DNA of 64,000 nt from Lytechinus pictus (Eukaryota). A program made the position numbers and the translations under genes. The notes below the pieces were generated by a model that made no database searches, was not told where the DNA came from, and was given only the letters and a program-made list of their open reading frames with translations. The stretch is from NCBI RefSeq assembly GCF_037042905.1, contig NC_087251.1:47432001-47496000 (forward strand), in the 5' to 3' direction. This document shows positions 44,760 through 54,300 of the stretch, piece by piece. Position 1 is the stretch's first letter, and each line of letters starts with the position of its first letter.

Positions 44760-45828
44760 AATAACTCATTGAATAACATTTTATTGTGGGTATACATACA
44801 AGGTACTTCATTAGCTCAAAATCAATTCAGTATTTTTTTTTATCATTTTCAATTATATTTTACATTCGATTGTGCAAGTTTTACTGTTCAATATATAAGC
44901 ATGTAGAATGACCAAGGCATGTAAACATTACAAGTACACTTTCATTTGCTGTGTTATTGCAAATTTACAGACAGAAATGCACTGTGCATCGTGCTACAGA
45001 CAAAAGCAACCAACACATACTGGTATGATAGCACTAACTGTTATTGCTAAGATACCTTAACCTTATAATCATAAGTCTACATGAAGCAAAGGAACAGAAG
45101 TGAAGGTTTGGGATTTGACTGGAAAAGCACACAAAAATTGCATAATTTCTAGGAAAAAATCATATGATTTCTAGGAAAATTGTCAGCTATCTTTTAAGAA
45201 GTAATATAATCGAAAGCAAAGTCTGTTTGCTATCCATACAAACTCATATGATGGTTCTTATGTCTCAATGCATACCAACCCCCTTTCCATTTACTTGAAT
45301 ATCAAGAATTGGAACCGATTGTAACAAATTGCAATCCTTGTAGATAGCAGTCCTCGTGAAAAGTAAAATAATCCAAACATACATGCATGGACTGGTCATG
45401 TACAAATACAACATATATATATCATCCAGCTTACACGTTTCCATTTCTCAGACAAGAAACTCATTCTCTTGCAAAAAAAATTAACACAAAACATAGAGTT
45501 ACTGGTAACCATTAAAATGACAATATATTTTTTCCTGAATTTAGGTGTTAGGATGGTGGTAGATTGCTTGTGACTGTAGATATTTCTACCTGCTTCTCTG
45601 CATATATATTTTTCTGTAGAGAGATTAAAAGAAATGCTTAAACTAATACAAAAGTCACACCACTGATAGATGCAGGAAAGATTGAACATATACTAATAAA
45701 AATAAACAAATCAAATCAATTGTCTGATGATTCATTTGATATGTCGCATAGCTGATTCTCAGAATCTATTTGCAATATCATGAAGTAACCAAGTTATAAA
45801 TCATTGGTTTTTTTTATCCAGAACATTG

Positions 45829-45881
<53 letters not shown>

Positions 45882-48335
45882 TGATATGTGGATGGAATTA
45901 GGTAGATGGGCGGAGGGGGAGGTGGGGGGGGGGGGGTTAATAGAGGGGAATACATAATACAAATACATTGTACATTACACGGTATCAAACAATAAAAAGA
46001 AAATCAGATATTTGCACATGGTGATCACGAGTTGTCCGAATTTGGCTAAGAAAAATAATAGAGGCAAGAATCTATGAATCAAAATAGACAAAACTAAACT
46101 GTATCTGATGTCTGCTGAGCTGACGATATTAAAAAATCAACAACCCTAAACAGTATTTTATGATGATTTCTGAGATGCAATCAAATTGATTGTACGGATA
46201 TAGCATATTACATTAAACACGAAATATAAACAGTATTTTATGATGATTTCTGAGTTGCTATCAAATCAATTGTACGTATAATGGCATTTCCATGTAGGCT
46301 TTGGCTGTTTGGCAAGGCACTATACATAGCACACATTGTTGATGATTTGGTTTGTAATGTAAATTAACATGGATGATACAAAAACACAATACAAAAAAAA
46401 CCAGCACGTTCTGATTCTTGGCTTCTGGCTGCCGTGTAGATCAAGGCACGTGGAACTAAAAAATGGCGACCCTGGGTTTGTTGTTTATTGCTAATACCAT
46501 TTGGTGATCAAAATAATTCATAACCACATTTCCTGTCTGAATAGGTGATTAAATAATAATCAGACTATTTTTCAACTTATATCTCTTTTTCTTTTATGAT
46601 TTTCTGCTGCAATAGATTTAAAACCTCCCACAATGATGGTCATAAACATTAGATCATTTAAAGAAAGACATTTGAATGTCCACTAATTCCCTGCACATTT
46701 AATGTAAAAACCGCAGAGTACAATCAGACTTTGTTTTGAAATATCACTTGATTATTAAAACAAGTCTTTTGTTAAATCCTTTTGTTAAATCGTGAATTTT
46801 GTTTCCATAAGCATATTTTTTGTACCAATTCTGCCATCAGAAATAATATGTAAAATACACTTTGCACTTTGATGACAATTTTTTACATCCTTAAAGAACT
46901 AATGCTGAATGTGAGTTGATATTCATTTCATTACAAAGTTACAATGCATTAACAAATACAAAATACATCACACAGGCACTTGGATGTATGCAGATTCTTA
47001 CTGTTTGAAATAATTGCAGTGCTTTTGCAAATGTCGTCAAAATACTGAATTACAAATTGTTTTCAATGAACTACACCTACTCTAAATACAATACCAGCTA
47101 ATACCATCTACCATAAACGCTACTAAAAATAATCATTTAAATAGAAAAAAAAAATGCATGTATACATAATAAATGATTACACCAAACAGTACAATTAAAA
47201 CAATTTATAAATATAACACTTTAAATGTGTATATGCAAATTAAGGTGAACAGAGATACATTGAGGGTTAAACCTTCAAACCATAAATACATCATTTTTGT
47301 TCCATTTGTTCCTGGCTAAAATCATTTCTCATACATAAACAATAAAATCATAATAATACCCAGCTTGCTAATGTGAAATACCAGCATTTCGACTAAATTA
47401 CCCAGAAGGCAGTCTTCAAAAATCATAGACTCGGTAACAATCGACATCATCAAAACATAACCCCTACCTACCTCCATGAAGTATGAAGCTCTCCAACTCA
47501 AATTTACATTGTTTTTGAAGAGTTCTTTATAAATAATTCTCCAGCTCAAAATTTTGAAGCTATAGATCACATTGGAATATCCAATGCTTCGATATTACAC
47601 AAGCTAAGCATATACAATCTCACTGGCCAGTTAAAGCAAAGATTCTTATCTTATGCACATGCAGTACAAGGCTCACATAACATTACCATTCTGATATCTT
47701 ACAACATTTGTAATCATTATGCACATCATTTTTTGGACATAGTTGATCATCAAAGCTTCTTTCTTTCTTCAAGCCATGACAGGATTTTAGCTTTTCATAA
47801 CTTCATGCTATCACTATTATCCAGACTGGGATAAAAGCAAGATATCTATAGAAGTAATAGCAACAGGTCATGACCCTTACATAATATTACATTATATTTG
47901 TTGCAAAATAACTGTACATTTGGGAATCATTTCAAATATTCAATTGATTAATCAATATTACTTGGATTTACAATGGATATATAAAAAGAGATATAAAGAA
48001 TACATGATTTTCTTCTTTTTTTCATGCTGTATCTGTAGCAGTGGCTTCGAGGAGGCATGTTTTTGAAACCTCTGATCTACAAAATGAACACATATCATTT
48101 CATGAATGTTTTATTTAACTGCACAGCCATAAATACAAGGGAATGACTGGAAATAGCATCCAACTTTTTTTTTCTCTCTCCATTCCAAATGAATGGCGAA
48201 TCGGTTCCCACATTCTTTAAACATAAAATTCTAGCGTTAGTTACAGTACAGGACCAAGCGGCTGTAGGATTCCATGCAGCTGATCAGCAAAGAAATTTAC
48301 AGACGTTATAAACTCTACGACCGATGGTGTTGCAT
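44760..48335 (-). other. Probable ~3.6-kb 3'UTR of the CBM48 gene
   Basis: I recognised no MITE in this stretch after the stop codon; minus-strand AATAAA at 44780-44785 (and another near 48110). Confidence 0.45.
45829..45879 (+). repeat. (GA)n microsatellite
   Basis: Direct reading. Confidence 0.95.
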
Positions 48336-48386
48336 TCATGCCACAGTTACGGTGTTGTTCAGACCGAGCTCGCCTTCTACGGTGGC
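48336..48386 (-). CDS. CBM48-protein terminal coding exon
   Basis: ATTTTCTCTTTCAG| ATVEGELGLNNTVTVA*; matches the final CBM48 strand (AMPK beta FGTVNNFINV). Confidence 0.87.
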   Translation of the reverse strand, partial: ATVEGELGLNNTVTVA

Positions 48387-51300
48387 CTGAAAGAGAAAAT
48401 TATGGGAATAAAGATTGAAAAAAAAGTTATAACTGGTCATGATATATGAAGAGAGGACCACATAACACAAACCTTAGTAATCAATCATGGGCTGATTTCT
48501 ATGATCAATTACATTGATAATTGTGAATAATCAATTGTAAAAATTAGCCACGCAATCAATTGCTAAACTTAATGATATAGGCCCGTACTCTGAACTCGGG
48601 TTTAAATCAAACCCTTGTTTAAAGTTGTGGTTTAACTATGGAGAGCCAATTGGAGCACAAATCCCTAACAGAACACTAACTCATATGACACCCAAATTGT
48701 TCATAAATGTCCGGGAATGATAACTGAAGTATTTTTCTTCATTATGAAAGCAAAAGGAAACAAAATAGTAAACATAAGAAATATACAATATGAACAGAAT
48801 TTTTTAACTTTTGGCTCCCCATAATTTTAGCACAGTGTTAAACCATGGTCTAATTTAAAAAAGACTTCAGAATACGGGCCATAGGGTGTTTCATAAAGGA
48901 CTTTTAACTGTTGTAACTTTGCCATTATCGTAACTACCATGGTAACCTTGATTATGATTGGCTGCTGAGCCCTGTTACCATGGTAGTTGCCATAATGGCA
49001 AAGTTACAACAGTTGTAAGTCCTTTATGAAACAGGCCCAAGGTCATGATAGATAATGAAAGGTTTACATCCCGATGGACAGCATTGTACAGCAACAGTAA
49101 CTCGGTACATAGCATTTCAATATTTCTAAATTCTTGGGGACATTTCATAAAAGTCGCCAACATTGACTATACAGCTTGGGAAATCATTATTAGACCTTGC
49201 TGAATGAGAGCTTCGTAGGCAAATAAATTATTTGAATTTATTCGAATATTGACCCTCTGTATTTTAATTTTCTGATTGTCTCTATATTTGTATGCCCAAC
49301 GGGTCGTGTGGTCCAGTGGTTAGAGCATTGGACTCATAATCGCAAGGTTGTGAGTTCGAATCCCAACTCTGCCATTGTCTCCACTTTGATAAAAAGGCCC
49401 AAGAGTGATATCTGTCGTCTATTACGTCAGCCACTATGACTGATTAACCTAGACGTAAAATGTTTCCAAGGTAATTGGTTATATACCAGCTTGGCGTTTA
49501 CCAGCAAAAAATGCTGTCCTGCCGAGTTCCTACGGTAGTTACCACAAACAGAAACAGAAAACAGAATTGTTGTGATATTTTCATTTTCATATTCTTTATT
49601 GTTCTTTTCTTTGCTAATAGTGCTTTGCAACTTCTGTATAAAGCACTTTATGAATTTTGTACATTATTATCTAATAATTATTTCCCAAACTGTATTATAA
49701 ACTTTGACAATATCAGTGAAATCCTTGATTTCTGACTGTTCTGATTGTCAGAATAGGACAATTTGTCAAAGCTGACAAGCTTCATTAAATAGTGTCCAGA
49801 TCCAAACTATTTATATTTGATGGTTTTCTAATGCATCATAACTCCTCAAATTTTCCTAGATCTATATGTTTCATGATTTTTTTCCTCTCTTTCTTTTTGT
49901 GATTTAAATGTAATCAATTTTCACTGCAGACAACAAGAACACGCTTCTGGTACATTTAAGTTACAAAACGTTCCTCACTATGTTGAAACTCAAAGCGTAA
50001 CACAAGACAAAAATCTTTGAAGTATACAATTTCTAAATAGAAAATGAACAAAGTATAGCACCACTGCAATCACGGACCCAAATAAAAATGCAAACAAAGA
50101 GAATGAAAGCCAATAATTTAGCTGACCATTAAATGTTCATGTCTGTATCACACAAAGATGATTTCATAAACGTGTAATTTCTAAAATTATGTTGTGAGAT
50201 AAAATATGCATGCACATCAAATATAGAAAATACAATATCAAAATCTCGGATTGCAGTTTGAAGACGATATAAAGCTATGAACCAGAAATATATCTACATT
50301 TTCATGCACATATCAAAACACACAGAGGTATAACTCCTCTGATAATTTTTATATCAAAAGACTATTGTAACCCTGGTTATCATCTGTGTCTTTAATACAG
50401 ACAGAGCTCAAAATTTGATGATAGCCAATCAATGTCTTACAATTTGGGGTCACTTTCCACTCTATTCATTATTTTGTTCTGTTAATGCGGAAATTAAACT
50501 TAACATGCCTTTCTCATTGTTTATGCTCTTTTGTGAATCTAGAGGAACCAAGATGAAATTGCAAAATTAAGTAAAAAAAAAAAATTAAAAGGAAATAGGT
50601 GAGAAAACAAGAGCTTGACATTATCAATGTAATTTTGAAAAAGAAAACACTTTGAAATTAATTTAAGCATATTGAGTAAAATTACGTAAGCAATACAGCA
50701 AATGATTCCATACAAATATTAAAAAAAAAACAATTGATGCTGATACTACCTGATAGGCCTAAATTCAACATATAAAATACATTCTTCTGAATAATTCCAT
50801 GAAATAACTATCTTTTTTGTAGTATGTTCAATCCCATTTAGATAATTTTAATATTTCGATGAGTCAGCACAAAATGAAGGCCAATCCTGCTACGAAGGTC
50901 TCATATCAGATACTTTATAAAATTGCCCTTCTTCTTTGTCTACTTTGGAAACACCTGCATCCTTTACTGCTGAAGATTCTTGCAGATTCTTAAAAACATA
51001 TGGAGTATTTCATGAAAAAAAAGGAATTTCACGGAATATTGTTTATAAAAATCCTTGCATATCTGATTGGCAAAAAGCAAATTAGTCATAAAACTTTTCA
51101 TGAAACACTCTAAATGTTTGACCTGAACTGCAGGATAGCCAGAAAACCAATATCGTTGGTTTGCTGTCAAAAAGTTTTGAGGACAGCCCAGGAAAAGTTG
51201 CATTTTAGAATCATGGTAATGGCAGCAACCCCCCCCCCCTCCCCCCGCTTTCTGAGAACGTAAGTCTACCAATTCCTGTCAGGAACTCTTACAAGCTAAT

Positions 51301-54300
51301 AGACGATTACACCTATGCTTCAACTCTAAGATATAGCTTTTTTTGAGCTGTCTTCCCTTTTCTTAAGTTTTGAGAAAAAGGGTTTTAACAGCTCAAGAAC
51401 TGGATTTGGTCACAAGGAACAATACTTGACCAACACACCACAGCAATAAACAACTCTTGCCAGAATGAACAGGTAAGGAACAGCACATCAAAATGTGAAC
51501 AGCGCCCCCTTCTGGCAGGCATCTGCCATGCTTCTCACCTGCTTGGAGTCTACCTTGTCTTCACCATCGACTACAAACTTGTAGCTGTAGTCTCCTGCAA
51601 GGAGGTCCATTTTAACACTGAAGCAGCCATCACTGTAAGTGTGTATGTAGTGGAATGAATGGGGTTATAAGATATTCATAAAAAAAACTTGAGGCAAGGC
51701 TGGGGGAGGGGATGAGAGAATGTAATAATGCTGCCTGCATAGTGCATACCAAGGTCGAGGAGGATACTTTGCTGATTATATCATTTGCATAGATTTACTG
51801 GATTAATCAAAAGAGATGATCCTTGCAAATTCTGATTTAAATTTTACCAAAGGAAACAAATAGCTTTTATTTAAAATTCAAAGTCCTCCTTCCTGTCCCC
51901 TCCTATGCAGGAAACATCATCCGTTCTTCTCATCACAAAGTTTGATACCATCATTCCATGCTCATTCCTGAATTGATATTCTTCAAGAGGAATTTCATTA
52001 CCATTATTATGCCCCACTCGCACGCACCAGCAAAACTAACTCCAGACCGACTTATAATATGCCATTGAAAATAATGCAAAAGCTTTGGCCGGTCTGGAGT
52101 CGGCCTCGTTGGTGTGATTGTCCCATTTCAAGCATCACCAAATACGGATCAAGGCCGGTGGTCCCTTTATCAATGTCTACGGGGATTCCGAGGATAATCA
52201 TCCAACGAAACACAGATGAGCATGAAGCGATGTACCAAACTCCCCTCCAGGCAAGCCTTCATTAAATACACAAACATACAAACTGTTGCATCTTGTTACC
52301 TGTTTCATACTCGTCTTCCACTCGCCGTCTACGATAAACTTGTATGTCCATTCCCCGGGGCCAAGGGACAGCGTTTGTGCAAACGTGCCTTCCTCACTAC
52401 CTCATTAAAATAGGGTATGGAGTAGGGGTGGTAGTAGTGGTGGTGGAAGTAGTGGTAGGGAGAATAGCAGGAGGGTATGAAGAAGTTAGTAGTGGTAGTA
52501 GTAGTAGTAGTAGTAAAAGGGTATGAAATAGTAGTAGGAGTTATCATACAGGTTAATAGTGAGGCAGAGGGGATATGTATTAGTTATATAAAAAGTTTAA
52601 TCAGTTCACATTTTTCATTTCCAATTTAGTATGAATGCAACACGTGGATTGGAAGTGCGCATATTATTTTGGTTGGTAGATGAGGTATGTGTGAGAGAGG
52701 ATTGATATATTTCAAAGGAAAAATCATTCAAAAAATGAATGAATTCAAAACCATGCATGACGTGACCAACAATGAATGACATTGTATACAAAGAAATTGC
52801 AAGGGGGAGGGTGTCGTTTGTTTGTTTGGTGTTTGCACAGACATGAATTCATTTGATTGAAAGAGATTTTGCCATTTTATCATTTGCAATAAAGGTTTGT
52901 AAAAAAGTGCAAATATTTGTATTCAATAAAATTGAGCAAAAAATTAAATCCAATCAAACCACAGCATGCAGTATTTTCAAATATGAAAAAAAAATAATAA
53001 GATTGTGAATTATAATGGATAGAATGGGGAAATAATTTTTTCTAATGAAAATTGAAATGAAAAAAAAAATAAATTAAAGGTTTGATCAAAAATGAAAATT
53101 GAAAGAAGCAATTAGAGGTTAGACAGAAAATGAATGTGAGGAAAGACAAAATACAAAACAAATAACAAATGAGACACAAATACATCTTATTCCAAATAAA
53201 CAAGTTTAAGGAGGTAAATGAAAAAGGCATGCAGCATGCAGTACACCTCCATGTATTTCAAGCCATTCTGACTTCACAATCTGTGACTCCAATATTGAAC
53301 ATGTCACATATAGGTATTCAGTCAGTAAGCTGGCCCTGATAAAAAGTAGCTTCTTTCATCAGATTGATATTCATGATTAGAGTGGTCTTGCATATTTAAT
53401 GAGCTTAATGCTGACCAAAACACCTCTTTTAATTTGTTCATTGCTGCTCTAAATATTTATGGAATTCATTATTTTGGTATCATTGAAAAGAAGAAGAAAC
53501 ATTCTTTCGGGTCATATGTTTGAATTTATTTAGAAATTTTGCAATGTTGTTGAAAATTTTGATCTAAAACATGCTAATTTTTTTTTTTTTTCACCTTACA
53601 AAAGGTCATATTCATATTTGTTTGAGCCAAAATTATTTTTAGATCATAATAAAGCTGAATATGTTAATGGTATAGGTTTCAAGAGAAGAATTGGTTTAAT
53701 TGGGTTGAGATCACACTTTTCATAGGCCAAGTAAATTTATCAGCTTGAAAATAAGAACACTGTGCACTCTGATTGGTCAAAGAGACTACACACCCAGCCA
53801 AATTCAAACTGTTTCCATACTGGGGCCCTTCCAAGGTCACACTCCCCATGTGGAAATCTCTTCAAATTAACCTCGCCAGTTGTTCTGAAACCTTATCCAG
53901 CCAATCAGAACTCTGGATTTCATGCATGCAACTCAGAAATTTTAGAAATCTTGTCTTTTACCTTGGTGAGAAAAGTGTAATCTTGACCCGATCAAAAGGT
54001 GACACATATAAGAGTGGCAGTGTAAGAAAGTACATATTTTCAGCTTTGTGATGATTTAAATATGTTTGAGGCTCAAAATAGTAAATTTTGCACAATTTGC
54101 AAAAGAAAACAGAAGAAACTCAATTTTTGAGGCATCTCTTCAGGTCTGACATTTACTCTATCAAATGGTGCAATAATATTTAATTTGACCATAGGATAAA
54201 GTGGTTAAGTTCTTAGAGAAAGAAATCTCATGATTCATGAGATTTTGCATGGAGGATTCAGCCACAAGATGATTTGGATGAATCTGGCCAATTTGCTCAT

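Follow-up and report, generated by a model that had tools for sequence, protein, structure and literature searches.

An unusually long AG-free zone precedes the first of two alternatively used duplicate exons of a gene encoding an AMPK-type glycogen-binding domain

The gene considered here lies on the minus strand of the window, the whole 64,000-nt stretch of DNA that was analyzed, and encodes an AMPK-type glycogen-binding domain (AMPK1_CBM, PF16561). In transcript order, Pro/Glu/Ala-rich exons (57.1–63.5 kb), which probably extend past the window edge, are followed by exon C1, exon A, exon B, and a last exon (Table 1), with an AMPK beta gene further downstream. Exons A and B have the hallmarks of a duplicated exon: lengths of 97 and 94 nt, the same phases, the same Pfam stretch, and RNA coverage of both. 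The reading frame stays open when C1 is joined to the last exon through either A or B. Inclusion of both places a stop at the A–B junction, 94 nt before the last junction, and skipping of both leads to a stop inside the last exon. Under the 50–55 nt rule of nonsense-mediated decay, transcripts containing A and B together would be expected to be decay targets and to be removed. Between B and the last exon, a strong acceptor-like site (50538–50640, minus strand) with a long U tract and a 73-nt AG-free zone is followed by five phase-0 codons and a stop, a candidate alternative last exon.

Table 1 Features of the exon A region, in transcript order.
Feature	Position	Strand	Remarks
Exon C1	56526..56658	-	First CBM half, ends in phase 2; PF16561 positions 2-30, E 5.5e-09
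Tandem TGCATG (RBFOX-type)	53228..53240 (53228, 53235)	-	About 50 nt upstream of antisense element
Antisense element	53136..53179	-	Predicted pairing with 3' end and donor of exon A or exon B
CTAAC (53122-18, branch A 53119) and CTAAT (53115-11, branch 53112) with U-rich tract	53044..53122	-	
Lone AG	53042..53043	-	Strong acceptor look; no exon after it in RNA
AG-free zone	52403..53041	-	639 nt, 3' tail of C1-A intron (4.1 kb)
TGCATG	52965..52970	-	Within zone
TGCATG	52752..52757	-	Within zone
TACTAAC, candidate branch point (-90)	52485..52491	-	Inside CUA/CCA repeat
Acceptor GAG-G-TAG of exon A	52397..52403	-	TAG keeps frame, GAG leads to immediate stop
Exon A	52300..52396	-	97 nt, phase 2 to 0; second CBM half, PF16561 33-62, E 2.2e-07
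Exon B	51539..51632	-	94 nt, paralogue of A, same phases; PF16561 34-62, E 4.4e-06
Predicted last exon, coding part	48336..48386	-	In frame after A or B

Protein searches returned nothing that qualified as a close orthologue (0/1 candidates), and the highest identity among 69 matches was 64%. Three sequences from other organisms (P0020, P0028, and L001) share the architecture of a long acidic linker with a C-terminal CBM; no second-exon DNA was obtained from them. A degenerate pattern for exon A gave 0 matches in metagenome stretches, and 32 related loci contained neither a duplicated exon nor an AG gap above 158. In L001 (584–1385), a phase-2 intron apparently lies at the same place in the CBM. 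The N-termini of P0020 and P0028 begin with MG followed by a basic stretch, which we take to be a myristoylation-like motif.

Two raw RNA runs carrying the same species label (X21 and X23, of which ~6% each was used) were aligned to 51400–53450 and covered both exons, on the gene's strand only. Depth was about 20 over B and about 11 over A in X21, and about 34 and about 4 in X23, giving A shares of 0.36 and 0.11; the difference between runs has P 0.02 on depths and 0.1 with overlapping mates halved. These gene-strand reads bear out the original prediction that exon A is functional, and the exon is variably included. In X23, 32 reads join the start of exon B (51632) to the 3' end of C1, which fixes the phase-2 donor of C1. 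No A–B joint was listed at a threshold of three reads, with A depth only 11 and 4, and no exon A junction reads occur among the 24 of 308 loose ends listed, so the choice between TAG and GAG at the exon A acceptor rests on the reading frame. GAG and TAG do stand 4 nt apart there, as had been noted, and the in-frame TAG is the putative acceptor. Over 52435–52986, neither run has transcript-strand depth except 0.26 in one bin, and the two runs yielded no lariat or intronic reads in the zone. A G>A change (plus strand) at 51546, replacing Ser by Phe near the end of exon B, is present in 22/22 reads of X23 and 0/17 of X21; of the two samples, X23 also has the lower A share.

A recount upheld the claim that plus-strand CT is lacking from 52403 to 53041: the minus-strand AG count is 0, with no plus-strand CT between those at 52401–02 and 53042–43. 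This is the longest AG-free gap on either strand of the window, where the runner-up measures 278 nt and the plus-strand maximum is 165 nt. From the composition of the zone, 15.6 AG would be expected. Zero AG was reached in 0/20000 shuffles at each of four block sizes (639, 100, 50, and 25), and in Markov simulations of the window (150 runs each) the longest gap was at most 227 nt (order-1) or 252 nt (order-4). G content of the zone is only 8%. Its CUA/CCA low-complexity 3' end (52403–52530) accounts for only 0.5 expected AG, and the other 511 nt still hold 0 AG against 15.7 expected, so the low-complexity end explains nothing. Taken as far as 53186, the 784 nt from 52403 contain one AG, at 53043.

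By Gooding's rule the AG-exclusion zone of the exon A acceptor is 643 nt, compared with 22–62 nt for eight other acceptors of the gene and 73 nt for the candidate extra acceptor, in agreement with the earlier statement that the zone is unusually long; the lone AG at 53043 has an AG-free zone of 142 nt. An AG-exclusion zone (AGEZ) is called at a length of at least 100–150 nt ending at a used acceptor, and that of exon A ends at an exon covered by RNA. The AG-free zone is thus real, and its length is far beyond chance and stands alone among the 10 acceptors examined for the gene. A coding reading of the zone was rejected, its sole long minus-strand frame being of low complexity and devoid of RNA depth.

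In a related species (organism B, runs X9 and X13), contigs could be aligned to most of the zone, with divergence near 6% (36/586 in X13), similar to the A–B intron and exon A together (49/818 in X13). Alignment at this divergence marks the zone as unique sequence of some age rather than a recent repeat. Some 13% of possible substitutions in the zone would create an AG, and about 4 such gains are expected from the 32 or so differences relative to organism B. None of the seven indels listed for 52633–53060 creates one (12 of 25 indels listed), and the 40 of 227 substitutions listed include none from the zone. TACTAAC at 52485–91 falls under the repeat mask in this comparison. Further upstream, 53082–53182, holding CTAAC/CTAAT and the antisense element, shows 1 difference in 101 nt in X13 (P 0.02 against a 5.8% background), and 53082–53247 shows at most 3 in about 166 nt (P 0.014); the limits of this block are set by contig ends and it comes from X13 only, the X9 contig spanning 53069–53450 having 19 differences. 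The antisense element lies in the stretch least changed in organism B, with at most 1 change in X13. Around AG 53043, 13–14 of 135 sites differ from organism B (X9), and this AG may be lineage-specific.

Within 80 nt of the exon A acceptor, no strong branch motif with usable spacing was found. The acceptor had been described as having no adjacent U-rich tract; a U tract is indeed absent, although positions -30 to -11 hold 16/20 pyrimidines and are C-rich. CTAAC and CTAAT, at -723 and -716 from the acceptor, are together with their U tract the best distal branch-point candidates. They are present as first reported, but upstream of AG 53043 and so outside the AG-free zone. Weak TTCAT/TTCAC motifs at 53058, 53046, and 53006 are the only ones consistent with Gooding's 5'-edge rule, by which the zone has a branch motif and pyrimidine tract at its 5' end or no more than ~15 nt before the first AG; their use would leave no far AG to skip. 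The perfect TACTAAC of the original prediction is also in place, followed by 21/25 pyrimidines and predicted unpaired at 0.99. We judge it somewhat better than an even bet that branching occurs close to the zone's 5' edge, several hundred nucleotides upstream of exon A. The CUA/CCA repeat (52420–52515, minus strand) is complementary to the exon A acceptor region in several registers and is predicted to pair over the TAG, with 7/200 shuffles as good.

Branching at CTAAC/CTAAT would place AG 53043 between the branch point and exon A, at 69–76 nt. This is beyond the 12–18 nt limit of steric bypass given in the portions consulted of PMC5378181, so scanning would have to skip the AG. Its G is predicted to be paired (unpaired 0.01–0.04) in weak A–U helices, and the hairpin predicted over it reaches -1.7 kcal/mol, with 22/200 shuffles as good. 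The yeast COF1 and UBC13 introns, as covered in extracts of PMC3239191, offer a precedent in which structure masks an AG between branch point and acceptor; their stems are stable and tested, in contrast to the weak helices predicted at AG 53043, and scanning does not occur in yeast. Re-splicing at 53041, in which the last GU of C1 followed by AAAA would form a donor, was discarded on sequence reasoning as it breaks the frame.

All four minus-strand TGCATG motifs that had been listed (52752, 52965, 53228, and 53235) are present, but two of them lie upstream of AG 53043, outside the AG-free zone. Their number upstream of A compares with 0.44 expected (P 0.001, for a window chosen after the fact). 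ACTAAY, a QKI site, occurs twice against 0.44 expected (P 0.07), and TACTAAC once (P 0.06, inside the CUA repeat); neither is clearly enriched. Two more TGCATG copies, at 50209 and 50303 (minus strand), lie about 1.3 kb downstream of exon B, and the A–B intron has none. UGCAUG is the RBFOX site (PMC2777236, in the passages available), and a layout of four copies upstream of A and two downstream of B would favour B in the presence of RBFOX protein. The alpha-actinin NM/SM pair, according to the same passages of PMC2777236, likewise has several (U)GCAUG in the intron upstream of the first of two duplicated exons, in a repressing position. Unlike alpha-actinin NM/SM, A and B have no steric block between them. 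Steric exclusion of the tropomyosin type does not hold for this pair: A is the upstream exon, and the 668-nt A–B intron contains 35 AGs with a 53-nt zone. Steric hindrance of the tropomyosin 2/3 kind was rejected for this locus on the same ground, since it needs an AG-free intervening intron in which the branch point of the downstream exon sits close to the donor of the upstream one. The exclusivity of A and B is better explained by frame and decay.

Inspection of a fold brought out an antisense element just upstream of CTAAC. Its predicted partners (for 53179–53136) are the 3' end and donor of A (52325–52286) and the 3' end and donor of B (51568–51529), and a further predicted helix, 53126–53120, covers the start of CTAAC. 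The predicted element–A duplex has 38 pairs, 29 Watson–Crick and 9 G–U; within a fold of 52300–53250 (z -3.6, 20 shuffles), an unbroken 17-pair helix (53167–53151 with 52310–52294) crosses the A donor and is extended on both sides. Over the exon–intron boundary 34 consecutive target bases are paired, 14 of them intronic (tail-only null 6/3000), and the B donor pairs with the four bases that bulge out when the element is paired with A. Among 5329 tiles the element is the best partner of the A donor region (-38.2, next -29.7); in the reverse scan of 7994 tiles of the window, its top partners are the A donor region (-38.5) and the B donor region (-31.6). Shuffles matched the pairing in 0/2000 cases for A, 10 and 12/2000 for B, and 361 and 182/2000 for C1, and variants with the same protein and a random donor tail matched it in 0/3000 cases for A and 261/3000 for B; against these variants the B pairing does not stand out. 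At synonymous sites the B pairing shows no fit (1682/3000). The energy ratio is 0.52 for the A donor and 0.28–0.39 for seven other donors of the gene. By this ratio 22/618 random tiles have an equally good partner, of which 21/22 also score at least 0.45 on the opposite strand, as DNA inverted repeats would; the A donor scores 0.41.

Other measures were less favourable. In an unbiased length-penalised scan the duplex is not outstanding: its score of -12.8 places it at rank 6 within the 2-kb region, and the null best is -13.8 +/- 2.0. The whole of exon A or B against 53120–53200 was not significant (171–438/1000 shuffles). In 1.8-kb folds the element holds the A donor and partly covers CTAAC; with the A donor forced open, it moves to the B donor and CTAAC opens. 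With A masked, the B donor is also paired, in a local hairpin; since B predominates in the RNA, masking is overcalled by these folds. A long hairpin at 52959–52851 was dismissed, being no better than shuffles (25/200) and the same on the other strand. Rfam gave 2 matches, both far below the gathering score. We give the element–A duplex about even odds of being functional. A fuller proposal, in which the element would consist of side-by-side antisense copies of the two donors and act as a two-way mask, is doubtful. Paired with A, such a mask would hide the A donor and a branch point 720 nt away, and paired with B it would hide the B donor and free A; we think this toggling unlikely at present.

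In the mechanism that we propose, AG was probably purged from the zone because the spliceosome probably finds the A acceptor by scanning, starting at a branch point that lies several hundred nucleotides upstream. Branching would take place near the 5' edge of the zone, either at CTAAC/CTAAT with AG 53043 skipped or at one of the weaker sites (53058–53006). The element, transcribed first, is modelled as pairing over the A donor and the beginning of CTAAC. This pairing would make exclusion of A the default and favour B, the major form. When the A donor is occupied, the element would switch to the B donor and CTAAC would be freed. The upstream RBFOX-type sites may add to repression of A, and transcripts with both exons would be lost through nonsense-mediated decay.

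The chief alternative to an edge-proximal branch point, which we rate as possible yet clearly less probable, is that the productive branch is TACTAAC at -90 (or a site at -157, -184, or -205) and that AG is lacking upstream for another cause. Cryptic acceptors may have been selected against within a pyrimidine-rich platform for regulators, or the distal branch sites may be non-productive and serve only to delay splicing until exon B is made. The match to TACTAAC is perfect, the motif is predicted to be exposed and leads into a pyrimidine-rich run, and there would be no AG to skip; distal sites moreover are reported to be accompanied in most cases by a proximal one, their main effect being to delay splicing (Taggart et al., PMC5378181, as excerpted). 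Yet it sits inside a CUA repeat, where such a motif arises easily, and alone it leaves 550 AG-free nt upstream unexplained, and in two vertebrate cases, PTB exon 11 and GABBR1 exon 23, splicing needs the site at the zone's 5' end while nearer high-scoring sites are dispensable (PMC1431707, in the parts available). A further reading makes CTAAC/CTAAT, the U tract, and AG 53043 a second acceptor that extends A by 645 nt and exposes the product to an early stop and decay. The anatomy of AG 53043 is that of a textbook acceptor with an AG-free zone of its own, and the extended product stops 657 nt before the last junction. We nonetheless hold this to be improbable: the extension from 53041 has no RNA depth beyond the single low bin already noted, 53041 is not a loose end among the 24 of 308 listed, and the extension gives no reason for the lack of AG. 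Least probable by a small step further, and very unlikely in our estimate, is that the zone is a compositional accident of G-poor, U-rich, repeat-ended sequence. Low G, low complexity in the last 128 nt, and a microsatellite within the second-longest gap speak for an accident, as does a repeat-caused 369-nt zone on record (Gooding et al., PMC1431707, in part). The local shuffles at all four block sizes and the AG-free 511 non-repeat nucleotides speak against it, as does the exact coincidence of the zone's 3' end with the acceptor of an exon that is used alternatively.

For the antisense element, an explanation that falls only a little short of an even chance is that 53179–53136 is conserved as a U/G-rich protein-binding site, of which CELF and ELAV sites are types, and that its complementarity to the donors is fortuitous. 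G–U pairing with purine-rich exons and the paralogy of A and B would help such a coincidence, and the discovery by fold inspection, the rank in the unbiased scan, and the indifferent synonymous-site result for B are in line with it. The composition-matched shuffles for A, the run of 34 paired bases with its tail-only null, and the energy ratio of the A donor relative to the seven others weigh on the opposite side.

Exon A can be compared with the vertebrate AGEZ exons (PTB exon 11, nPTB, GABBR1 exon 23, and tropomyosin exon 3). They have in common with A a long AG-free tail that runs to the acceptor of an alternative exon, begins on its 5' side with branch motifs and a U tract, and contains regulator motifs. 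Distant branch points have been mapped 100–400 nt upstream, with AG bypass within 12–15 nt, and zones of 381 nt (PTB), 438 nt (nPTB), and 1126 nt (an unmapped human case) are described (Gooding et al. 2006, PMC1431707). The zone of exon A exceeds those of PTB and nPTB and is shorter than that one human case. It differs from the vertebrate exons in having an AG between its best 5' motifs and the zone, in belonging to an invertebrate-type gene, and in a branch point that is only a candidate. By analogy, exon A is a candidate distant-branch-point exon of the vertebrate kind. Among the papers listed by the literature searches, none dealt with sea-urchin AG-exclusion zones, which is weak evidence of absence.

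The predicted pairings recall ATE1 exons 7a/7b, where, in the excerpted text of PMC7797038, a single element can pair at either of the duplicated exons, with one partner in each case, and the pairings hinder a splice site; ATE1 R3 hinders 3' splice sites, whereas the targets predicted here are donors. In Dscam docking/selector systems, the selectors expose an exon (PMC6071210, in extract), in contrast to the masking predicted for exons A and B. Relative to both systems, the present element differs in its position, which precedes exons A and B alike and adjoins a candidate distant branch point, and in its partners, which are exon 3' ends and donors; it is also a prediction only. Ivanov and Pervouchine (PMC6071210, same extract) propose that exon duplication creates competing RNA pairings; the predicted pairing with A and B fits this duplication model, but with donors as targets. 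Neither a single element masking two donors nor mutual exclusion by donor masks with an ultra-distant branch point was found among the papers listed and passages searched, again weak evidence of absence, and the excerpts of PMC4691838 and PMC12772994 contain no such donor-masking case.

The part shown is a long example of a known layout before a regulated exon. Should the branch point lie at about -650 to -720, scanning would cover a distance much greater than the roughly 400 nt known from mapped vertebrate cases and would run past an AG, with consequences for views of the reach and strictness of spliceosomal scanning. The predicted donor-masking element is a new lead, absent from the original prediction; if it works, it would provide a small two-exon test case for the step from duplication to competing pairings, in an unusual donor-masking form.

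Several smaller features were recorded nearby. The second-longest AG gap of the window (278 nt, 45766–46046, minus strand) comprises a C run and a TC microsatellite, with no exon evident after it. A local antisense to the B donor lies 45–70 nt downstream of it (51468–51493, minus strand), with a predicted hairpin over the donor; this segment includes the only CTTACCTG on the minus strand of the window, and the organism B changes listed comprise none in 51463–51477 and six flanking it. The A–B intron also carries an inverted repeat (51711–51742 with 51903–51934) that overlaps the C-rich 51700–51740, which can pair with a G run at about 51246, downstream of B. An organism B change at 51739 breaks a pair of this inverted repeat.
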